From NCBI RefSeq assembly GCF_003334765.1, contig NZ_QOWT01000001.1: DNA of 64,000 nt; one strand, 5' to 3'. Position numbers and translations under genes: made by a program. The DNA comes from Escherichia coli. GTDB lineage: Bacteria; Pseudomonadota; Gammaproteobacteria; Enterobacterales; Enterobacteriaceae. Each line of letters opens with the position of its first letter. The first letter of the stretch is position 1. Below, piece after piece: positions 1,611 through 28,400 of this stretch. Under the pieces are notes generated by a model. It saw only the letters and a program-made list of their open reading frames with translations. It was not told where the DNA came from and searched no databases.

Positions 1611-1687
1611 TGGTGCGTCCGAGTGGACTCGAACCACCGACCCCCACCATGTCAAGGTGGTGCTCTAACCAACTGAGCTACGGACGC
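1611..1687 (-). tRNA. valW: tRNA-Val (anticodon GAC), 77 nt with encoded CCA
   Basis: RC of 1611-1687 is gcgtccgtagctcagttggttagagcaccaccttgacatggtgggggtcggtggttcgagtccactcggacgcacca: canonical D-loop and T-loop (GGTTCGAGTCC), anticodon GAC. valV/valW assignment by synteny is tentative. Confidence 0.9.
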
Positions 1688-1691
1688 AGGA

Positions 1692-1768
1692 TGGTGCGTT
1701 CAATTGGACTCGAACCAACGACCCCCACCATGTCAAGGTGGTGCTCTAACCAACTGAGCTATGAACGC
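1692..1768 (-). tRNA. valV: tRNA-Val (anticodon GAC), 77 nt with encoded CCA; tandem copy separated by a 4-nt spacer
   Basis: RC of 1692-1768 is gcgttcatagctcagttggttagagcaccaccttgacatggtgggggtcgttggttcgagtccaattgaacgcacca; differs from the neighbouring copy only in acceptor/T stem positions. Confidence 0.9.
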
Positions 1769-2075: not shown

Positions 2076-3332
2076 ATGGGATCTGATGCGAAAAACTTGA
2101 TGAGCGACGGGAACGTGCAAATTGTTAAGACCGGCGAGGTCATTGGCGCGACGCAACTTACTGAAGGCGAGTTGATTGTTGAAGCTGGCGGAAGAGCCGA
2201 AAATACCGTGGTCACGGGGGCTGGCTGGTTGAAAGTGGCAACCGGTGGGATCGCCAAATGCACACAGTACGGTAACAATGGCACGCTATCGGTCAGCGAT
2301 GGTGCCATTGCCACAGATATTGTTCAGTCCGAGGGAGGCGCAATTAGTCTCTCTACGCTCGCTACGGTTAATGGCCGCCATCCCGAAGGTGAATTCAGCG
2401 TTGATAAAGGTTATGCCTGCGGTTTGTTGCTGGAAAATGGCGGTAACCTGCGTGTACTGGAAGGACATCGCGCGGAAAAAATCATTCTCGATCAAGAGGG
2501 CGGCCTGTTGGTTAATGGGACAACCTCAGCGGTCGTGGTAGATGAAGGTGGTGAATTGTTGGTGTATCCAGGTGGGGAAGCCAGCAATTGTGAGATTAAT
2601 CAGGGCGGCGTTTTTATGCTGGCCGGGAAAGCCAGTGATACGTTGCTTGCTGGTGGCACCATGAATAATCTCGGTGGTGAAGACTCTGACACTATTGTTG
2701 AGAATGGATCCATTTATCGTCTGGGGACGGATGGCCTTCAGCTCTACAGTTCCGGTAAGACGCAAAACCTGTCCGTGAATGTGGGTGGTCGGGCTGAAGT
2801 GCATGCCGGTACGCTGGAAAACGCGGTAATACAAGGTGGGACAGTGATCCTGTTGTCACCCACCAGCGCGGACGAAAATTTTGTCGTAGAGGAAGATCGC
2901 GCACCGGTTGAACTGACCGGGAGTGTTGCATTACTGGACGGCGCTTCAATGATTATTGGTTATGGCGCAGAGCTGCAACAATCAACGATTACTGTACAGC
3001 AGGGCGGTGTGTTGATTCTAGACGGCAGTACGGTAAAAGGTGACGGTGTCACTTTCATTGTTGGTAACATCAATCTGAATGGTGGAAAACTGTGGCTGAT
3101 CACTGATGCGGCAACGCATGTGCAACTGAAAGTGAAACGCCTGCGCGGAGAGGGAGCGATTTGCCTGCAAACCAGTGCAAAAGAAATTTCACCTGACTTC
3201 ATCAATGTGAAAGGGGAAGTTACCGGGGATATACACGTTGAGATAACAGATGCCAGTCGGCAAACTCTGTGTAACGCTCTGAAATTACAGCCAGACGAAG
3301 ACGGGATTGGCGCAACGCTCCAGCCTGCGTAA
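2076..3332 (+). CDS. ydhQ: Autotransporter-adhesin-related protein YdhQ (418 aa), passenger-like beta-helix repeats without a recognisable beta-barrel translocator
   Basis: ORF-track 418 aa frame; Gly/Asn/Thr-rich repeats typical of AIDA-like passengers (e.g. GGxAxNTVV, GGxLxV); length matches recalled K-12 YdhQ. Confidence 0.85.
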   Translation: MGSDAKNLMSDGNVQIVKTGEVIGATQLTEGELIVEAGGRAENTVVTGAGWLKVATGGIAKCTQYGNNGTLSVSDGAIATDIVQSEGGAISLSTLATVNGRHPEGEFSVDKGYACGLLLENGGNLRVLEGHRAEKIILDQEGGLLVNGTTSAVVVDEGGELLVYPGGEASNCEINQGGVFMLAGKASDTLLAGGTMNNLGGEDSDTIVENGSIYRLGTDGLQLYSSGKTQNLSVNVGGRAEVHAGTLENAVIQGGTVILLSPTSADENFVVEEDRAPVELTGSVALLDGASMIIGYGAELQQSTITVQQGGVLILDGSTVKGDGVTFIVGNINLNGGKLWLITDAATHVQLKVKRLRGEGAICLQTSAKEISPDFINVKGEVTGDIHVEITDASRQTLCNALKLQPDEDGIGATLQPA

Positions 3333-3338
3333 AAATAC

Positions 3339-3372
3339 AGGCGCAACCCGTGAAGGTTGCGCCTTGTCTTTA

Positions 3373-3374
<2 letters not shown>
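3339..3374. terminator. Bidirectional intrinsic-terminator-like hairpin between convergent ydhQ and mdtK
   Basis: aggcgcaacc cgtgaa ggttgcgcct followed by tgtctttatt; 10-bp GC-rich stem plus T-rich tail, placed between two convergent stop codons. Confidence 0.55.
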
Positions 3375-4767
<1,393 letters not shown>

Positions 4768-4960
4768 TTATATGAGAGACTAAAAAGCCGCCTGAATGGG
4801 CAGCAAAAAGAAGAAGCAGGGGAAATTCAGTCTATTGTAGCGAGGATTTATTAATTCTCCAGTGAAAAAATAGCCATTCTTACCCCTTCACTGGTAAGGG
4901 CGTTTTCCACCTGCTATTGTGCTGAACAGAATGTCTTAACTGATTTCAGGAGTTGTAAGT

Positions 4961-5602
4961 ATGTTTACGGGGATTGTACAGGGCACCGCAAAACTGGTGT
5001 CGATTGACGAGAAACCAAATTTTCGTACGCATGTGGTGGAGTTACCCGACCACATGCTGGACGGCCTGGAAACCGGTGCTTCCGTGGCGCATAACGGTTG
5101 CTGCCTGACCGTGACGGAAATTAACGGCAACCATGTCAGTTTTGACCTGATGAAAGAAACGTTACGCATTACCAATCTTGGCGATTTAAAAGTGGGGGAT
5201 TGGGTAAACGTTGAGCGTGCGGCGAAATTCAGTGATGAAATTGGCGGACACTTAATGTCAGGTCATATTATGACCACTGCTGAAGTGGCGAAAATATTAA
5301 CCTCAGAAAATAATCGCCAGATCTGGTTTAAAGTCCAGGATAGTCAGTTGATGAAATATATTCTGTACAAAGGATTTATTGGCATCGACGGTATTAGCCT
5401 GACCGTCGGCGAAGTCACGCCAACGCGTTTTTGCGTCCATTTAATTCCGGAAACACTGGAACGCACGACTCTTGGGAAGAAAAAACTTGGCGCACGCGTC
5501 AACATTGAAATCGATCCACAAACTCAGGCAGTGGTAGATACGGTAGAACGTGTGCTGGCGGCACGAGAAAATGCCATGAATCAACCAGGCACAGAAGCCT
5601 GA
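4961..5602 (+). CDS. ribC: Riboflavin synthase alpha subunit (213 aa)
   Basis: ORF-track 213 aa beginning [29 protein letters not shown], the classic riboflavin synthase N-terminus; internal duplication of the lumazine-binding half. Confidence 0.95.
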
Positions 5603-5609
5603 TCTGAAA

Positions 5610-5631
5610 TCGCCCCCGGAGAGGGGGCGAT
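5610..5631. terminator. GC-rich hairpin between convergent ribC and cfa (possible shared terminator)
   Basis: tcgcccccg gaga gggggcga perfect stem; flanking U-tracts are weak, hence low confidence. Confidence 0.4.
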
Positions 5632-5641
5632 AGAATAGCCT

Positions 5642-6790
5642 TTAGCGAGCCACTCGAAGGCCGTTTTCAACACCGCGTGAGAACACGACCTGCCAGAGCT
5701 GAATATCACGGGCGCGGAAAGCACCTGCACAGGCATTCAGATAATAGGTAAACATTCGTTTAAAGCGTTCACTATAGTTATCCGCAATTTCTGGCCATGC
5801 GGCGAGGAATCGTTCATACCACGCCATCAACGTAGTATCGTAATCAGCACCGAAGTTATGCCAGTCTTCCATCACAAAGTGGGGTTCGCTGGACTGAGCA
5901 ATCTGGCGTACAGAGGGCAGGCAACCGTTCGGAAAAATATATTTATTAATCCAGGGATCAACATTCAGATCGGTTTTTTTCGAACCGATAGTATGGAGCA
6001 GGAATATGCCTTCCGGTTTCAAATTACGATCCACCACCGCAAAATAGGTATCGTAATTTTTCGGTCCGACGTGCTCGAACATCCCCACAGAAACAATACG
6101 ATCAAACTGGTCGTTCAGGTCACGATAATCTTGCAGCAAAATGGTGACATCCAGGCCTTCACAGCGTTCCTGAGCCATTTTTTGCTGTTCGGCAGAAATG
6201 GTGACGCCCACCACGCTTACGTCATAATTAGATGCCATGTAGTGTGCCAGTCCGCCCCAGCCGCAGCCAATATCCAGTACGCGCATCCCTGGTTTTAACT
6301 GCAATTTTTCACAAATCATTTTGAGCTTCGCCTGCTGGGCAGATTCCAGATTATCGGCATCTTTCCAGTAAGCGCAGGAATATTGCATGAAGGGATCAAG
6401 CATGCGGCTGAACAAGTCATTACCCAAATCGTAATGCTCTTTGCCGACTATCCAGGCACGTTTTTTACTCTGCAGATTGAAGAGACGAGCGCCGGCAATA
6501 CGCAGCGTGTCTTTGAAATGATGGGGGAGTTGGTTCTCGAGACCTGCGCGTAAGACTTTGCTAAAAAACATATCCAGTCGGTCACATTCCCACCAGCCAT
6601 CCATATAACTTTCGCCTAACCCCAAAGAGCCTTCTTGCAGAACGCGTTTAAAAAAATCGGGGTTTTTCACACGAATATCCGCCGGGGCAGAACCGTTAAT
6701 GGCTATACCGGCACGGCTAAGTAATTCGTTGGCGATACGGTACCAGTTGTCATCCGGTACACTGACTTCTTCTATACACGATGAACTCAT
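5642..6790 (-). CDS. cfa: Cyclopropane-fatty-acyl-phospholipid synthase (382 aa)
   Basis: ORF-track 382 aa; SAM-methyltransferase motif VLDIGCGWGG; matches recalled K-12 Cfa. Confidence 0.95.
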   Translation of the reverse strand: MSSSCIEEVSVPDDNWYRIANELLSRAGIAINGSAPADIRVKNPDFFKRVLQEGSLGLGESYMDGWWECDRLDMFFSKVLRAGLENQLPHHFKDTLRIAGARLFNLQSKKRAWIVGKEHYDLGNDLFSRMLDPFMQYSCAYWKDADNLESAQQAKLKMICEKLQLKPGMRVLDIGCGWGGLAHYMASNYDVSVVGVTISAEQQKMAQERCEGLDVTILLQDYRDLNDQFDRIVSVGMFEHVGPKNYDTYFAVVDRNLKPEGIFLLHTIGSKKTDLNVDPWINKYIFPNGCLPSVRQIAQSSEPHFVMEDWHNFGADYDTTLMAWYERFLAAWPEIADNYSERFKRMFTYYLNACAGAFRARDIQLWQVVFSRGVENGLRVAR

Positions 6791-7080
6791 AGTTTCTCCA
6801 TCACTGGTCGGTGATCAGAACCTTAAAACAGCGTAGACGCTTTTTGGGCTTTGTGAGAAATCTCGCAGAAAAAACCGCGAGTCTATAATCCGACGTAGAA
6901 CAGAGGGAAAGGAGGAACCCTTGCCGAAATGACTATCCATAGTGAGTCGGGAACGATCCTGTCCCCGTAAAAACATAATATTTATCGTAGCTTTAACAAC
7001 TCGAAATTAGTATAGGCCGCTAATTTCAATCATACAACAAAATTTTGTTAGCAGCCTAAGTATAAGTATATCGATATAGA

Positions 7081-10359: not shown

Positions 10360-10403
10360 TCCATTTCACTCCAGACCCTAACTTCAGCTCCTGCAAAATC
10401 GCA

Positions 10404-10419
10404 AGGTAAACGTTTGCCT
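10404..10419. promoter_or_regulatory. Putative PurR operator (PUR box) in the purR leader
   Basis: aggtaaacgtttgcct; palindromic core AAACGTTT with flanking G/C as in PUR boxes; about 45 nt upstream of the purR start codon. Confidence 0.5.
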
Positions 10420-10657
10420 TTACACACCTTACGCACAACAAAAGTGTTGCGGTACGCCGGAAAAACGACACGGAGCGTCAGGAAGGGGTCAATGGCCAGT
10501 ACGCAAATAGTGTAAGCGTGGAATTTTGGCCGATCTTGACGAAAAGGGGAAGTGGTAAAAACACTTATCATTATAAATGACGGGAGATTTTTTCATCACA
10601 GTGTGTAAAAATGCGTAATATCACTTTTTGTGTGGTAATAAAAAAGGAGAAAACTTG

Positions 10658-10747
10658 ATGAGCACCGACCTTAAATTTTCACTGGTAACAACGATTATCG
10701 TCCTCGGTTTGATCGTAGCCGTGGGTTTGACTGCCGCGCTGCACTGA
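10658..10747 (+). CDS. ynhF: Small membrane protein YnhF (29 aa)
   Basis: Not in the ORF track (too short). atg at 10658 preceded by aaggagaaaactTG RBS; encodes MSTDLKFSLVTTIIVLGLIVAVGLTAALH, a single TM helix, which I recall as K-12 YnhF. Confidence 0.75.
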   Translation: MSTDLKFSLVTTIIVLGLIVAVGLTAALH

Positions 10748-10912
10748 TTTCCTCTCGAGGGAGCGCGTTCTCCCTCGCATCTCCTTCCTGTTTGTTAGCA
10801 AAATGGCAAAAGTGTTTTCTCTTTTTGTTATTTTCATTTTTTTGTGATTGCTGTCATGCTTTCGCCACTTTAATGAATATCGCGTAATGACGCGAAGAGG
10901 TGGAGATAAGGC

Positions 10913-23620: not shown

Positions 23621-24142
23621 ATGAAACGTTTTAGTCTGGCTATTCTGGCGCTGGTTGTTGCAACCGGCGCACAAGCTGCCAGTGAAAAAGTCGAGATGAA
23701 CCTCGTCACGTCGCAAGGGGTAGGGCAGTCAATTGGTAGCGTCACCATTACTGAAACCGATAAAGGTCTGGAGTTTTCGCCCGATCTGAAAGCATTACCC
23801 CCCGGTGAACATGGCTTCCATATTCATGCCAAAGGAAGCTGCCAGCCAGCCACCAAAGATGGCAAAGCCAGCGCCGCGGAATCCGCAGGCGGGCATCTTG
23901 ATCCACAAAATACCGGTAAACATGAAGGGCCAGAAGGTGCCGGGCATTTAGGCGATCTGCCTGCACTGGTCGTCAATAATGACGGCAAAGCTACCGATGC
24001 CGTCATCGCGCCTCGTCTGAAATCACTGGATGAAATCAAAGACAAAGCGCTGATGGTCCACGTTGGCGGCGATAATATGTCCGATCAACCTAAACCGCTG
24101 GGCGGTGGCGGTGAACGCTATGCCTGTGGTGTAATTAAGTAA
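23621..24142 (+). CDS. sodC: Periplasmic Cu,Zn-superoxide dismutase (173 aa)
   Basis: ORF-track frame 23570..24142; true start is the internal ATG at 23621 (MKRFSLAILALVVATGAQA signal peptide); His-rich Cu/Zn ligands (GFHIHAKG, GGHLDPQ). Confidence 0.93.
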   Translation: MKRFSLAILALVVATGAQAASEKVEMNLVTSQGVGQSIGSVTITETDKGLEFSPDLKALPPGEHGFHIHAKGSCQPATKDGKASAAESAGGHLDPQNTGKHEGPEGAGHLGDLPALVVNNDGKATDAVIAPRLKSLDEIKDKALMVHVGGDNMSDQPKPLGGGGERYACGVIK

Positions 24143-26155
24143 TTAAGAGGCCAGCGTACCTTGCGGTGGTGCTTGCTCAAGTTGCGAAAGCGAGCAGTAC
24201 AGCCGCCAGACAATTGCCGCCAGCTCACGGGCGGCAGGTTGATGATGACGGGCAAGGCTGTCGCAAATCCGCTGTAATTCTTCAAGTGTGGCCGCCAGTG
24301 ATTTTTGCTGAACGCCACGCTCACTCATCACTCCCCGCAACAGTGAAATACAGTTATCCCGTACTCGCGATAACGGATCGGAACGCGATTCCCAGTCGCG
24401 CAATTGCCAGACAACATGAGAACAGTTCAGCAGCACTACACCCCAGCGTAATAACCAACGGCGAGCCAGCGCATCCTGGCTGTTACTCAACTGACTGACG
24501 TGATGATAAGTGAGCGATTCAAATTCGCTTTCACTCAGTGTTGGATGGCGGCTTAGCTGATCGACAAAATCCCGGCGCAGCGCGCGAATATGGCGGCGGC
24601 TTTTACGAGCATCCGATCCTGGACGCAGAATGGCGAACGCTAACCACGCCAACGCGACGCCAACGATTTTTGCCAGATTATCGTTAAGAAAATCAGCAAA
24701 ATCATACACCGGGGGATTAGTGACAGCGATAAAAGAACCCATAAAAACAATCAGTTGCCCCCACAATGCGGCAAATTTTGGCATCTGCAATTTAAGAAGC
24801 TGCATTGTCGCCAGCAGTGGAAAGAGAAACAGTAAAAATTGCCACAGATCGCTAATCTGGACCATCAGACCAAATTTGACCACAAAGCTGAATAGCGAAA
24901 GTAACACCAGCGTGCGCATCAGAAGTGACAACGACTTAAACGGTGCTGCGACGGCGGAGTAGAGTACGCAGCTAATTGCTGCCAGCGTTAATGCATTGGC
25001 ACCGGCATCCCATTGCGAAGCAATACTCCATGCGCCAATCATCATCAACGTACAAAATGTACGCAGCCCGCTCCACATAGCTTCGGCGTTATCGGTATGA
25101 CGAGCCAGGCCGGATGTCCGTGGGAGTCTGGTATGATCATCTACACCGCTTTGCAGACGATGTAATTCCTGACTACTTTGCAGATAAAGGCGGCAAAAAT
25201 AACGTAGTCGCTGCCAGAAGGCGACGTGCCGATAGTCGGCGACGTTGGTCGGGCGTAGCGGGGCGATAATACGTGCGACGGTGTAAACATCTGTTTGCGA
25301 ACTGGCGAGCGCCGTCAGCAACTGTTCGAGAATTTCTCGTGTGGCACCTGGCGGTGAGGGCCAGTTGAGCAACATACGTCGCAGGCTGGAGATGACACTG
25401 GTCATACGTAATTGCTGGTGGAGCAGCGCATTAAGGCGCGCGTTTTGCTGGCGAAAACGATAGTGGCTCCAGAAAGCCTGGATACGCAGCAAATTCATGG
25501 TCAGTATCTGCCCAATCACCCCTTCATGTGCTGCACGAATGGCATCGGTTGTTTCAGGCTGCCAGAGTAAACTGGCATGTTCCAGTAATCGGGCGTGCAT
25601 GTTTTTCAATGCGGTTAAAAGGGCAGTAGCATCGGAACTGCTCGGCAGGATCATCATCATCATGCCGCCGCACAAAATACCGACTATTACCTCGCAAACG
25701 CGCGCCTGAGCGATATCCCACAGCTGGCTGGCCTCAGTAATATTAACCATCGGAAAGGCGATGATGGCAGCCGTGTAGCCCGCCAGTTGAAATGCATACG
25801 CGACGTTATTCGTGAAGTGCGCACAGGCCCAGGTACAAAAGCCAAGCCACGCCGACATGCTCAATAGAAAAAACCACGGCTCATTGAGCGTATGCCCGGC
25901 AAGAAGCAGTGCCGCAATGGCTCCGAGCAAACTGCCAGCGATGCGTCCGAGGCTTTTGCTGATAACACCGCCAACGGTGGGAAAGCTAACCACTGCAGCC
26001 GAGGTCATCGCCCAATAGGGTTCATCCAGATTTAAATAATAGGCAACCGTCAGCGCCAGACACATGGCAATGGTATTGCGTAACGCATAACGCCATTGCG
26101 CCAGCGTGGCCCTGAACCAGGGCAAATTGCGCAAGGACCATGACGATGCGTTCAT
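24143..26155 (-). CDS. ydhK: Fusaric-acid-resistance (FUSC/AaeB-like) inner-membrane efflux protein YdhK (670 aa)
   Basis: ORF-track 670 aa, two hydrophobic domains separated by a cytoplasmic segment as in AaeB; matches K-12 YdhK. Confidence 0.9.
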
Positions 26156-27012
26156 TATTGACCTACGGCAATGCTACAGGTGGTGCCCGACACCAACGTG
26201 ACATCGCCTGGGACTTTATCCAGCGCAAAGCGGACGGGAACGCGTTGGGCGAGTCGAACCCAGGGGACGTTAGGTTTAACATCCGGAATAAGGCTTGAGT
26301 CACTTTCAACGCTCTGATCATAAATCGCCCGACCGATACTGGAAACGTGACCCTGTAACGTTTTGTTATCACTATAGAGGGTAATTTGTGCTGGTGCACC
26401 TTCGCGGATATGGCGCAACTTGGTTTCTTCAAAATAACCAATGACGTAAAACGAGTGGCTGTCGACAAGGGCAAACAGCGGTTTCCCGGTATCAGCGTAA
26501 TCGCCGATGCGGGTAGTAAGGTTAGTCACCCATCCACTCACCGGGGCGCGAATTTCCGTTTGCGCCAGTTGCCATTGTGCCTGTTTCAGCGTCGCCTGTG
26601 CGGCATCAACACTGGCCTGCATCGCTTTAACATTGAGGTTAGCGGTATCGAGTTCTTCGGCAGAAATAAAATTTTGTGAGAGATGACGACGACGATTCGC
26701 TTCGTTATTGGCTTTTGCGAGGTCAGATTGCGCTTTCGCCAGCTGAGCCTGTGCGTTCAGCTCGGCGATCTGAAAGGGCGTTTTATCGATCGTGAGCAGA
26801 AGATCCCCCGCGTTAACCAGCTGGTTGTCTTTTATATTCAGCTCAACAATACGTCCCGACACCTGTGGGGTGATAGAAACCTGTTCTGCGCGTATTTTCC
26901 CGTCGCGTGTCCACGGAGATTGCATGTAATAATTCCACAGCCACCATCCGGCAAGAACCGCAACTACCGCTACAATGATTGTTGAGAAATACTTAATTGT
27001 TTTAATTGACAT
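26155..27012 (-). CDS. ydhJ: HlyD/AaeA-like membrane-fusion (periplasmic adaptor) protein YdhJ (~285 aa)
   Basis: ORF-track frame 26155..27054; start placed at the internal ATG ([24 protein letters not shown]) by recall of K-12 YdhJ; N-terminal TM anchor plus coiled-coil; stop overlaps the ydhK start by 1 nt. Confidence 0.85.
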
Positions 27013-27014
27013 AG

Positions 27015-27251
27015 TTACCACGCAATCAGTATTGCCAGAGCAAGGCAAACGCAAATCGCAAACAGCGATAAATCCATTAACAAGGGATGCCAGATGTCAC
27101 CGGCGTAGATCCAGCCACGAAGCAGGCGGTGTACGACAAGCCAGATGACGAATCCAAACGCGAATGCTTTGAAAAACGGAGGAAAGTAGACGGACGCACC
27201 GAACACCAGATCTTGTAAGGGCAATCCTGTTGCATTGAGCATAAACTTCAC
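27015..27251 (-). CDS. ydhI: DUF1656 small membrane protein YdhI (78 aa)
   Basis: ORF-track 78 aa, two predicted TM helices; first gene of ydhIJK. Confidence 0.85.
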
Positions 27252-27423
27252 AAAGTAGATTCCTTTACGACCGAATATATTGCGTTAGATTAATAAATAT
27301 TCTTTAAGTGCGAAAAATTTACGCGCAATTTCTGAAAAATATGTCTGACGGTAACCAAATGCAGCAATACATTTGTTTTAGCAATACAATTGCTGCACAC
27401 TATTCTAAAAGCCGCATAATATC

Positions 27424-27435
27424 TTAGCAAGCTAA
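27424..27435. promoter_or_regulatory. SlyA binding site, 12-bp palindrome in the slyA leader and slyA-ydhI divergent region
   Basis: ttagcaagctaa is a perfect match to the published SlyA consensus TTAGCAAGCTAA; about 10 nt upstream of the slyA start codon. Confidence 0.7.
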
Positions 27436-27445
27436 TTATAAGGAG

Positions 27446-27886
27446 ATGAAATTGGAATCGCCACTAGGTTCTGATCTGGCACGGTTGGTGCGCATATGGC
27501 GTGCTCTGATAGACCATCGCCTGAAACCGCTGGAGTTAACACAAACCCATTGGGTTACGTTACACAATATCCATCAGTTACCTCCAGACCAGTCGCAAAT
27601 TCAACTGGCAAAAGCGATTGGCATCGAGCAGCCATCACTGGTCCGTACTCTGGACCAACTGGAAGAAAAAGGGTTAATTTCGCGTCAAACTTGTGCCAGC
27701 GATCGTCGGGCTAAACGTATTAAACTGACGGAAAAGGCAGAGCCGCTGATCAGCGAAATGGAAGCTGTTATTAACAAAACCCGCGCGGAAATATTACATG
27801 GCATCTCCGCAGAGGAACTGGAGCAACTGATTACGCTCATCGCAAAACTTGAGCATAATATCATTGAGTTACAGGCCAAAGGGTGA
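27446..27886 (+). CDS. slyA: MarR-family transcriptional regulator SlyA
   Basis: ORF-track 146 aa ([26 protein letters not shown]...); a TTG start 6 nt downstream (27452) would give the 144-aa form; winged-helix MarR fold. Confidence 0.93.
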
Positions 27887-27932
27887 AATGAAGGGGGCGT
27901 GTGGTCAGTAACCTGACCACACGCAAACTTAT

Positions 27933-28400
27933 TTAGCGCGGAGAAACGGTCACCTGACTGCCATTGCTGGCCAGTACGACACGTTGGCCCGGAGAGAAAC
28001 GAGTGTTGCCTTGTTTCTGTACCACCATGATGGTATTACCATCGTCTTTACGAATTTCCAGCTCGACACCCTGCGTTTTGTTCATTGCACTCTGTACGCC
28101 CTGACCAGCTACGCCACCTGCAACAGCGCCTGCTGCAGTAGCCAGAGAACGCCCGGTTCCGCCACCAACAGTATTCCCCAGGAAACCACCAAGAACAGCA
28201 CCGCCAATTGCACCGATAACGTTGGAATCATCACCGCCCTGAATCTGTACCGGACGTACGTTAACGATGGTGCCATAGCTGACATTCTGTACTTGTTTCG
28301 CTTCAGAAGCGGTATAAACATCCCCTGACAGGGTGTCGTTATTAACACAACCGACAAGAGACAGACCTACCATTGAAACAACCAATACGCGTTTAATCAT
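27933..28400 (-). CDS. slyB: Outer-membrane lipoprotein SlyB (155 aa)
   Basis: ORF-track 155 aa; lipobox LVGC; Gly-rich glycine-zipper region. Confidence 0.93.
   Translation of the reverse strand: MIKRVLVVSMVGLSLVGCVNNDTLSGDVYTASEAKQVQNVSYGTIVNVRPVQIQGGDDSNVIGAIGGAVLGGFLGNTVGGGTGRSLATAAGAVAGGVAGQGVQSAMNKTQGVELEIRKDDGNTIMVVQKQGNTRFSPGQRVVLASNGSQVTVSPR

Follow-up and report, generated by a model that had tools for sequence, protein, structure and literature searches.

Base-level map of the slyA–ydhIJK control region in Escherichia coli, a MarR-type regulator gene divergent from an AaeXAB-like pump with an operator very probably common to both promoters

Among described systems, the AaeXAB pump and its regulator AaeR (b3240–b3243) are organized most like the ydhIJK genes, with the same tightly packed order of a small DUF1656 gene, a HlyD-type adaptor gene, and a FUSC gene, and, as at slyA–ydhIJK, a divergent regulator, situated 182 bp away. 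A third E. coli system in which an adaptor is paired with a FUSC-type transporter, MdtNOP (SdsRQP), encodes an outer-membrane factor of its own (mdtP) and is not known to carry a DUF1656 gene; the MdtN model was the second-best NCBIfam match of YdhJ (203 bits). On the regulatory side, the MprA/EmrR–emrAB pair shares with SlyA–ydhIJK a winged-helix dimer that sits on a pseudo-palindromic operator over the promoters and is released by aromatic carboxylates. The emrAB-type target is likewise a pump made of an adaptor and a transporter, and YdhJ also matches the EmrA/EmrK subfamily model. These systems differ from the locus under study in several respects. The aae genes are governed by a LysR-type activator (AaeR), whereas ydhIJK are governed by a MarR-type repressor (SlyA); AaeAB exports 4-hydroxybenzoate and related acids (Will 2025), whereas the known substrate of YdhIJK is fusaric acid, in Salmonella; and the emrAB-type counterpart of the FUSC-type transporter YdhK belongs to the MFS. 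Unlike regulators of the MprA/EmrR type, SlyA is mainly a pleiotropic H-NS counter-silencer with a large regulon, and slyA has been kept while the ydhIJK pump was lost repeatedly. The slyA–ydhIJK arrangement has been presented as a retained ancestral MarR function (Will 2019, PMC6401476).

The locus was analyzed within a 64-kb stretch of E. coli DNA (hereafter, the window), in which the slyA–ydhIJK region is 100% identical to that of E. coli K-12 MG1655; every one of the 5,426 complete E. coli genomes contains the region. It is thus a known K-12 locus, whose SlyA box, SlyA binding, repression, ligand response, and AaeAB homology were published between 2002 and 2025, and it matters little as a discovery. 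The modest value of the present work lies in a map of the K-12 control region, i.e., a base-level promoter geometry that reconciles a blind promoter scan, capped-transcript starts, and conservation across 80 species. Our own results concern gene content, paralogy, the exact box, the placement of the features with respect to published start sites, and their conservation between species, and with high confidence they describe a MarR-type regulator divergent from an AaeXAB-like pump, with an operator common to both promoters. The features are listed in Table 1.

Table 1. Genes, promoters, and SlyA-type sites of the slyA–ydhIJK locus, in window coordinates.
Feature	Position	Strand	Description	Basis
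ydhK	24143–26155	−	670 aa, FUSC-family inner-membrane efflux protein, AaeB paralogue	ORF and RefSeq annotation
ydhJ	26155–27012	−	285 aa, HlyD/EmrA-type periplasmic adaptor, N-terminal membrane anchor	ORF and RefSeq annotation
ydhI	27015–27251	−	78 aa, GTG start, small two-helix DUF1656 membrane protein, AaeX paralogue	ORF and RefSeq annotation
Proximal ydhI promoter	27285–27311	−	sigma-E-like −35 GCACTT (27311–27306), 16-nt spacer, −10 TCTAA (27289–27285)	read by eye
Second SlyA-type site, TTATTAATCTAA	27285–27296	−	9/12; overlaps the proximal ydhI promoter in its −10 and spacer	
Candidate slyA promoter	27373–27401	+	−35 TTGTTT (27373–27378), 17-bp spacer, −10 CACACT (27396–27401)	
Third, candidate SlyA-type site, TTAGCAATACAA	27378–27389	+	9/12; between the slyA −35 and −10; +6 to +17 of the distal ydhI transcript	
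Distal ydhI promoter	27402–27430	−	−35 TTGCTA (27430–27425), 17-nt spacer, −10 TAGAAT (27407–27402); start 27395/27394	
High-affinity SlyA operator, TTAGCAAGCTAA	27424–27435	+	−29 to −40 of the distal ydhI start, +18 to +29 of the slyA start	
slyA Shine-Dalgarno, AAGGAG	27440–27445	+	6 nt before TTG, directly abutting ATG; invariant in 77/77 sequences	
slyA	27452–27886	+	144 aa, MarR-family regulator, TTG start	RefSeq annotation
GC-rich hairpin terminator	27897–27924	+	between convergent slyA and slyB; 12-bp stem, 8 G-C pairs, T-rich tail	

The initial annotation had described ydhIJK as a tightly packed unit with a 1-nt overlap between ydhJ and ydhK, and this was upheld: the final A of the ydhJ TAA is also the first base of the ydhK ATG (caaTAATGaac, with TAATG at the junction), and only 2 nt separate the ydhI stop from the ydhJ ATG. 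The protein families it had assigned were borne out by Pfam profiles. YdhK matched FUSC (PF04632, E = 5.4e-140) over residues 20–661, corresponding to positions 1–658 of the 660-position model, with a second match to FUSC_2 (E = 8.8e-17), and a crude hydropathy scan placed two hydrophobic clusters at about residues 69–171 and 386–512. Comparing the two halves of YdhK with each other by BLASTP for an internal duplication gave no significant match, and no solved structure related to YdhK was retrieved by sequence search at E ≤ 0.01. YdhJ matched HlyD_D23, CusB_dom_1, and Biotin_lipoyl_2 as well as TIGR01730 (RND_mfp, 135.2 bits, above the cut-off of 94.9), as befits a periplasmic adaptor, and has a hydrophobic segment at residues 8–30, while YdhI, encoded directly upstream of the adaptor gene, matched DUF1656 (PF07869, E = 1.8e-14) and has two hydrophobic segments. 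The proposed likeness to AaeXAB was confirmed by BLASTP, which detected similarity in all three pairs: YdhI/AaeX with 33% identity over 51 aa (E = 1e-5), YdhJ/AaeA with 41% identity (E = 5e-68), and YdhK/AaeB with 24% identity over 521 aa (E = 1e-27). A lack of similarity, the refuting outcome named in the initial annotation, was thus not observed. In NCBIfam, the best match of YdhJ was the AaeA model (NF007850, 243.4 bits, equivalog cut-off 400) and that of YdhK the AaeB model (NF007916, 120.3 bits, cut-off 870), but the scores fall well under the cut-offs, so the proteins are paralogues rather than orthologues. Homology of YdhIJK to AaeAB is stated outright in Will 2025. SlyA itself scored 278.7 bits against the NCBIfam SlyA equivalog (NF002926, cut-off 120) and matched the Salmonella SlyA chains 3q5f and 3deu in the PDB (E about 1e-79). 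The three pump proteins would thus form a paralogue of the aromatic-carboxylate pump AaeXAB, in which YdhK would be the inner-membrane FUSC exporter, YdhJ the membrane-anchored periplasmic adaptor, and YdhI a two-helix accessory. The locus carries no outer-membrane factor gene, ydhK being followed by sodC with no intervening gene, and an outer-membrane channel probably takes part in export.

The slyA and ydhI genes are divergent, and the distance between them, previously given as 194 bp, was corrected to 200 bp because slyA starts at the annotated TTG (27452) rather than at the in-frame ATG upstream (27446). This start codon agrees with the spacing of the Shine-Dalgarno sequence and with the reading frame in Cedecea, where a 1-nt deletion turns the TTG into an ATG and shifts the upstream ATG out of frame; a UUG start of slyA is also cited in the literature. 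Of 5,424 E. coli genomes, 5,406 carry the intergenic spacer at 99% identity or more. Across species, about 90 bp on the slyA side are near-invariant, while the ydhI-side half varies freely and differs completely between genera. In 78 of the 80 Enterobacteriaceae species, slyA and ydhIJK are arranged divergently.

The box TTAGCAAGCTAA was detected as a 12/12 match to the SlyA consensus, the sole exact copy in the window (0.00 expected in 100 shuffles). With up to two mismatches, four matches were obtained against 5.2 expected, and the relaxed motif TTAN6TAA, with 24 matches, is too frequent to inform alone. The earlier description of a perfect consensus palindrome holds for the consensus but not for the palindrome, as TTAGCAAGCTAA is self-complementary at 10 of 12 positions and its reverse complement departs at the two central bases. 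The footprinting that defined the consensus was reportedly done on the slyA promoter itself. A perfect match is in part circular, since the consensus is credited to work with Salmonella SlyA, namely footprinting and limited SELEX (Curran 2017, PMC5797941). The box at the slyA locus appears in Table 3 of the same study. Salmonella loci carry a box identical to TTAGCAAGCTAA. Of the 80 Enterobacteriaceae species, 78 have the exact 12-mer at an unchanged offset, and the loci of the other two depart from it by one mismatch.

Published start sites were taken from SMRT-Cappable-seq (Supplementary Data 2) and converted to window positions as w = 1748276 − g. The entry for thrL in that table is 147. 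This lies one nucleotide below what we take to be the thrL start, and a tolerance of ±1–2 nt was therefore allowed on all start sites. A consensus promoter scan run before the start-site data were consulted had returned TTGCTA-17-TAGAAT (27430–27402) as its only minus-strand promoter, a result that alone is not above chance (one match, 1.9 expected). The forward start at 1720881, with reads covering ydhI and ydhJ, maps to 27395, 7 nt past this −10, and gives a 144-nt leader. All 77 sequences compared contain TTGCTA, and 70 of them contain TAGAAT. The reverse start at 1720869 places the slyA transcript at 27407, and the hexamers that we read as a probable slyA promoter, TTGTTT and CACACT, are present in 76 and 70 of 77 sequences, respectively. 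The rightward slyA start and the leftward distal ydhI start are only about 12 bp apart, and each promoter therefore lies inside the leader of the other gene. The arrangement is that of a MarR-type divergon, in which the map places a single high-affinity operator over the −35 of one gene and within the leader of the other, so that one operator would serve both. A second ydhI start (1720995 forward) maps to about 27281/27280, only 3–4 nt past the −10 of a GCACTT-N16-TCTAA motif recognized by eye as a version of the sigma-E type sought (GGAACTT-N16-TCNAA). The ydhIJK genes have been treated as having a known sigma-E promoter, with RNA rising about 20-fold upon sigma-E induction (PMC7075262). This proximal promoter motif, like the ydhI-side half of the spacer, is kept within Escherichia only. 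All E. coli start sites rest on one dataset because the Ettwiller 2016 supplements yielded no entry for the locus, and the Salmonella Cappable-seq supplement yielded expression values and no ydhI start site.

Besides the 12/12 box, the E. coli spacer holds two 9/12 SlyA-type sites. Table 3 of Curran 2017 (PMC5797941) includes the second site, written TTAGATTAATAA, at a distance of 161 bp upstream from slyA, and TTATTAATCTAA was found in Escherichia only; the third, TTAGCAATACAA, belongs to a direct repeat of 13 nt (AGCAATACATTTG/AGCAATACAATTG).

The evidence that SlyA binds the region, represses its genes, and responds to ligands, like that for the fusaric-acid phenotype, comes from the literature, mostly on Salmonella and Klebsiella. 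SlyA bound a 200-bp E. coli slyA–ydhI fragment in EMSA (Curran 2017, PMC5797941), and in vitro it repressed ydhI 19-fold and slyA 5.3-fold, repression that salicylate relieved, lowering it from 19-fold to 3.2-fold in Salmonella (Will 2019, PMC6401476). SlyA represses ydhIJK in Salmonella (Will 2019, PMC6401476; Will 2025), where a slyA mutant showed derepression of 8–27-fold (log2 fold changes of +4.75 for ydhI, +3.08 for ydhJ, and +3.50 for ydhK; PMC12506092 Data Set S1), and kvrA mutants of K. pneumoniae contained 45- to >100-fold more YdhJ (preprint). A Salmonella ydhIJK mutant was sensitive to fusaric acid and grew late in it (PMC6401476). The EMSA, the in vitro repression, and the Salmonella and K. 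pneumoniae mutants support the suggestion in the initial annotation that SlyA controls both its own gene and ydhIJK. Combined with the map, they point to a mechanism in which SlyA would act on E. coli ydhI through the 12/12 box and repress it sterically: a SlyA dimer on 27424–27435 would cover the −35 of the distal sigma-70 ydhI promoter and keep RNA polymerase out, so that repression would be strong, while the same operator, within the slyA transcript, would form a weaker roadblock, and autorepression would be modest. Salicylate, benzoate, and similar aromatic carboxylates would bind SlyA and release it from the DNA, and the derepressed pump would export compounds such as fusaric acid. In E. 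coli, the Escherichia-specific, putatively sigma-E-responsive proximal promoter, overlapped by a 9/12 SlyA-type site, would add to this scheme. The base-level map would allow the operator to be separated cleanly from the promoter.

It is conceivable, if unlikely, that the 12/12 box serves slyA autoregulation only and that ydhIJK are controlled through separate, weaker, species-specific sites near ydhI, namely the 9/12 site at 27285–27296 in E. coli and, in Salmonella, one of 9/12 some 100 bp upstream of slyA. The E. coli site lies exactly over the proximal ydhI −10, 173 bp separate the box from the ydhI start codon, and the sole 9/12 site of the Salmonella loci, TTGGTAAGCAAA, lies at −104 from slyA. 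The ydhI operator over the −35 in Salmonella was, moreover, described as 75% identical to the consensus (Will 2019, PMC6401476); the box matches at 100%, and so the Salmonella operator, and perhaps the ydhI start, may differ. Furthermore, Intestinirhabdus has lost ydhIJK and retains the conserved block intact, including TTGCTA and TAGAAT, so the conservation cannot be credited to the ydhI promoter. Against separate sites, the capped ydhI–ydhJ transcript begins 29 bp from the box, with its −35 TTGCTA inside it, and the weak sites are not kept between genera, yet Salmonella and Klebsiella both show strong repression. The K-12 counterpart of TTGGTAAGCAAA is a 6/12 sequence (27348–27359). Its reading as a decayed operator, which might account for a loss of repression, is plausible, but no E. 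coli start was mapped nearby and the hexamers found by eye were weak; we retained it solely within the reading of separate ydhI sites.

The literature contains one real discrepancy, namely repression in Salmonella and Klebsiella versus mild activation in E. coli K-12. Deletion of slyA in chemostat cultures of K-12 changed no transcript, and ydhIJK, instead of falling, rose 2.2-fold with slyA in multicopy (Curran 2017, PMC5797941); these are the only E. coli K-12 expression data at issue. We consider it improbable that SlyA is a net activator of ydhIJK in K-12, the opposite of its role in Salmonella, by countering H-NS on the AT-rich ydhI-side spacer. Such a role would match the action of SlyA at hlyE and other E. 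coli targets, it agrees with the interpretation of the 2.2-fold rise as divergent-promoter activation by the authors (Curran 2017, PMC5797941), 24 of the 30 operons with changed transcripts are H-NS-repressed, and the ydhI-side half is the part of the spacer that differs between genera. However, all three K-12 SlyA-type sites occupy normally repressing positions at the ydhI promoters (−35, +6 to +17, and −10), the rise is small and was obtained solely with a multicopy plasmid bearing the same operator, SlyA gave no direct activation in vitro (Will 2019, PMC6401476), and the K. pneumoniae kvrA preprint reads the E. coli data as repression. That TTAGCAAGCTAA is a functionless chance 12-mer, as the commonness of relaxed matches might suggest, is practically inconceivable and already refuted by its zero expectation as an exact match in 64 kb, its conservation at one offset, and the in vitro binding of the fragment by SlyA (Curran 2017, PMC5797941).

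Within the shared-operator arrangement, we tentatively consider, as a possibility with less than even chances, that YdhIJK, rather than being chiefly a xenobiotic pump, exports an endogenous aromatic carboxylate, which would at the same time be the natural ligand of SlyA; the idea of an endogenous substrate was raised in Will 2025, and the present analysis contributes the promoter architecture. A homeostatic loop would then run through the shared operator, in which the accumulating ligand would displace SlyA from the ydhI −35 and the ligand would be exported, and the putative Escherichia sigma-E promoter would link the loop to envelope stress. If this is true, the Escherichia-specific sigma-E promoter and its 9/12 site could explain the difference between K-12 and Salmonella in the net effect of SlyA.

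Two further features of the control region were considered. The 144-nt ydhI 5′ UTR was rejected as a structured leader or riboswitch since its fold was no more stable than that of shuffled sequences (z = +1.13), and no Rfam family was found in the slyA–ydhI control region. A TATAAT-like hexamer at 27415–27420, from which a transcript would start inside the box, was not adopted as the slyA promoter, as SMRT-Cappable-seq contains no such K-12 start; the hexamer reads CATAAT in K-12 and TATAAT in 56 of 77 sequences, and it may serve as the slyA −10 in other genera.

The 4-kb region carrying slyA and ydhIJK was 100% identical to that of E. coli K-12 MG1655 and was present in 5,426 of 5,426 complete E. 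coli genomes. The initial annotation had described slyA as divergent from an AaeXAB-like efflux module, ydhIJK, with a perfect SlyA palindrome in a 194-bp control region; this description of the locus was confirmed, with small corrections to the palindrome and the spacer length. Gene coordinates in the table are those of the RefSeq annotation, carried over onto the window numbering. ydhJ and ydhK overlap by one base, common to the stop of the former and the start of the latter (TAATG), as had been described, and the ydhJ ATG lies 2 nt past the ydhI stop. At the other end, sodC and ydhK are convergent and their stop codons abut (TAATTA, 24140-24145) with zero intergenic bases, so that the terminator of either gene must fall within the coding sequence of the other.

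Genes, mapped transcript starts and predicted elements of the slyA-ydhIJK locus (window positions)
Feature	Position	Strand	Basis	Detail
sodC	end at 24142	+	RefSeq	
ydhK	24143-26155	-	RefSeq	
ydhJ	26155-27012	-	RefSeq	
ydhI	27015-27251	-	RefSeq	GTG start
slyA	27452-27886	+	RefSeq	TTG start
slyB	27933-28400	-	RefSeq	
Distal ydhI promoter (predicted)	-35 27430-27425; -10 27407-27402	-	consensus scan	TTGCTA, 17 nt, TAGAAT
slyA start	27407		SMRT-Cappable-seq	genome 1720869 reverse; leader 45 nt
ydhI-ydhJ distal start	27395		SMRT-Cappable-seq	genome 1720881 forward; leader 144 nt
ydhI-ydhJ proximal start	27281		SMRT-Cappable-seq	genome 1720995 forward; leader about 30 nt
Putative 9/12 SlyA-type site	27378-27389			within slyA promoter spacer; in first 17 nt of distal ydhI transcript
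Putative 9/12 SlyA-type site	27285-27296			over -10 of proximal ydhI promoter

The exact SlyA consensus site, TTAGCAAGCTAA, was located at 27424-27435 in the spacer between ydhI and slyA, precisely where it had been placed; this box has no second exact copy anywhere in the window and was found in 0 of 100 shuffles, and relaxed matches in the window were uninformative. It is self-complementary at 10 of 12 positions and is not a perfect palindrome. The DNA whose footprint defined the consensus is reportedly the slyA promoter itself, and the perfect match to the consensus is partly circular; the box is identical in the Salmonella loci. Curran 2017 (PMC5797941) gives footprinting and limited SELEX, done with the Salmonella protein, as the origin of the consensus. 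Because slyA starts at TTG 27452 and not at ATG 27446, the spacer measures 200 bp rather than 194 bp. The TTG is the RefSeq call, suits the AAGGAG at 27440-27445, and is cited in the literature as an 'unusual UUG start codon'. The in-frame ATG situated 6 nt 5' of it (27446-27454) was kept in 77/77 sequences. In Cedecea sulfonylureivorans (locus L043, about 4990-5003), a 1-nt deletion converts the TTG to ATG and leaves the upstream ATG out of frame, which supports TTG as the real slyA start.

A consensus promoter scan of the spacer, done ahead of any start-site data, returned a single promoter-like site on the ydhI strand, which taken alone was not above chance. Capped-transcript starts were obtained from Supplementary Data 2 of the SMRT-Cappable-seq paper (PMC6131387) in NC_000913.3 coordinates (g) and converted to window positions (w = 1748276 - g). 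The distal of the two ydhI starts was situated exactly 7 nt past the predicted -10. A tolerance of ±1-2 nt applies to the start sites, since the thrL start in the same table (147) is 1 nt under its accepted position. About 12 bp separate the slyA start from the distal ydhI start, and the two are directed away from each other; the box occupies -29 to -40 of the distal ydhI start, over the -35 hexamer, and +18 to +29 of the slyA start. Lying over the -35 of ydhI but downstream of the slyA start, it would be expected to repress ydhI strongly and slyA less. This predicted order agrees with that reported in vitro for Salmonella, where SlyA repressed ydhI 19-fold and slyA 5.3-fold, both relieved by salicylate (Will 2019, PMC6401476). 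The -35 site of ydhI in that study was a 75% match, compared to 100% for our box, so Salmonella may use a ydhI start or operator that differs from the arrangement described here.

Two additional putative SlyA-type sites, each agreeing with the consensus at 9 of 12 positions, were found in the K-12 spacer. The proximal ydhI promoter is sigma-E-like (GCACTT-N16-TCTAA), and ydhIJK is regarded as a sigma-E target, with RNA up about 20-fold upon sigma-E induction (PMC7075262). A 2006 FNR ChIP-chip study placed the slyA/ydhI spacer among the FNR-bound regions; the FNR-like site predicted there by that study, ATTTATTAATCTAACGCAATATAT (27285-27298), overlaps the proximal -10 and the 9/12 site located there. 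The distal ydhI leader gave no indication of a structured RNA element. Two repeats in the segment 27360-27397 straddle the distal ydhI start and the slyA promoter: a perfect inverted repeat of 9 bp (TGCAGCAAT / ATTGCTGCA, arms 20 nt apart) and a direct repeat of 13 nt (AGCAATACATTTG / AGCAATACAATTG). All carry the SlyA-box half AGCAA; they may serve as additional SlyA half-sites or as the site of another factor.

The interpretation that SlyA controls both slyA and ydhIJK is supported by the Salmonella in vitro repression and by a published EMSA in E. coli MG1655 with this 200-bp slyA-ydhI fragment (Curran 2017, whose Table 3 includes TTAGCAAGCTAA and TTAGATTAATAA), and was already known from the literature. 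The reported effect on ydhIJK appears to be mild activation in E. coli K-12, in contrast to strong repression in relatives. SlyA overproduction raised ydhIJK 2.2-fold and slyA deletion was without effect (Curran 2017). In the slyA mutant of Will 2025 (PMC12506092), ydhI, ydhJ and ydhK were derepressed (log2 +4.75, +3.08 and +3.50, respectively), and in kvrA mutants of K. pneumoniae YdhJ was 45- to >100-fold higher. A Salmonella ydhIJK mutant showed fusaric-acid sensitivity (Will 2019).

The linkage of slyA and ydhIJK has been surveyed throughout the Enterobacteriaceae (Will 2019). Among 80 Enterobacteriaceae species loci retrieved with SlyA as query, ydhIJK was divergent from slyA in 78; Intestinirhabdus alba lacks it, and in Kosakonia oryziphila remnants of ydhI and ydhK are left (loci L038 and L060, respectively). 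The box was exact in 78/80 loci and carried one mismatch in the other two. The slyA-proximal ~90 bp were near-invariant (TTGCTA 77/77, TAGAAT 70/77, TTGTTT 76/77, AAGGAG 77/77, TTG 77/77), while the ydhI-proximal half did not align across genera except for the ydhI ribosome-binding site, the same pattern as reported by Will 2019. Both the box and the block upstream of slyA were intact in I. alba and K. oryziphila; as the block survives pump loss, the ydhI promoter cannot be taken as the cause of its conservation. In 5,406/5,424 E. coli genomes the spacer was at least 99% identical.

In three loci (L021, L055, L072) ydhK matched in split form, which points to a frameshift or an internal deletion. 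Insertion sequences occur within the module in some E. coli strains (L084, E. coli LC-1302-2020, 2656-4826; matches H2, H3 and H22 as well); in two strains (H1, H2), ydhJ is split by an IS3-family element. In E. coli SC516, an ISApl1-family element appears to interrupt the ydhI-slyA spacer downstream of the distal ydhI promoter and ahead of ydhI, with a match break near query position 80. Compared with Escherichia, Citrobacter and Salmonella, the distance from slyA to slyB is ~1.5 kb greater in many genera, among them Enterobacter, Klebsiella, Kluyvera, Lelliottia and Trabulsiella (L025, L031-L033, L037, L039, L040, L044-L048 and many others, about 5430-7030), which implies an additional gene inserted between them.

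Regarding the encoded proteins, the family assignments held: YdhK is a FUSC-family protein (PF04632 full-length, E=5e-140), YdhJ an HlyD/EmrA-type adaptor (TIGR01730 score over the cut-off) with a single N-terminal hydrophobic anchor, and YdhI a two-helix DUF1656 protein. When aligned with the aaeXAB products (aaeXAB-aaeR locus of NC_000913.3), all three proteins matched their counterparts: YdhI/AaeX (33% identity over 51 aa, E=1e-5), YdhJ/AaeA (41% over 282 aa, E=5e-68) and YdhK/AaeB (24% over 521 aa, E=1e-27). The AaeA model was the top NCBIfam match of YdhJ (243 bits, orthologue cut-off 400) and the AaeB model the sole one of YdhK (120 bits, cut-off 870); judged by these scores, far under the orthologue cut-offs, YdhIJK is a paralogue of AaeXAB, and its genes stand in the same order. 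Both systems have a divergent regulator, which is LysR-type in AaeXAB (AaeR) but MarR-type in YdhIJK (SlyA). A sequence search found no solved-structure relative of YdhK. The AaeAB homology of YdhIJK is named in Will 2025, according to which its physiological function 'remains to be determined'.

Elsewhere in the window, Rfam gathering-level matches comprised the enterobacterial sRNA family STnc550 (396 bits, 10360-10750, +) and, at 1614-1768 (-), two tRNA genes and an overlapping 'HPnc0260' antisense-family match on the opposite strand.
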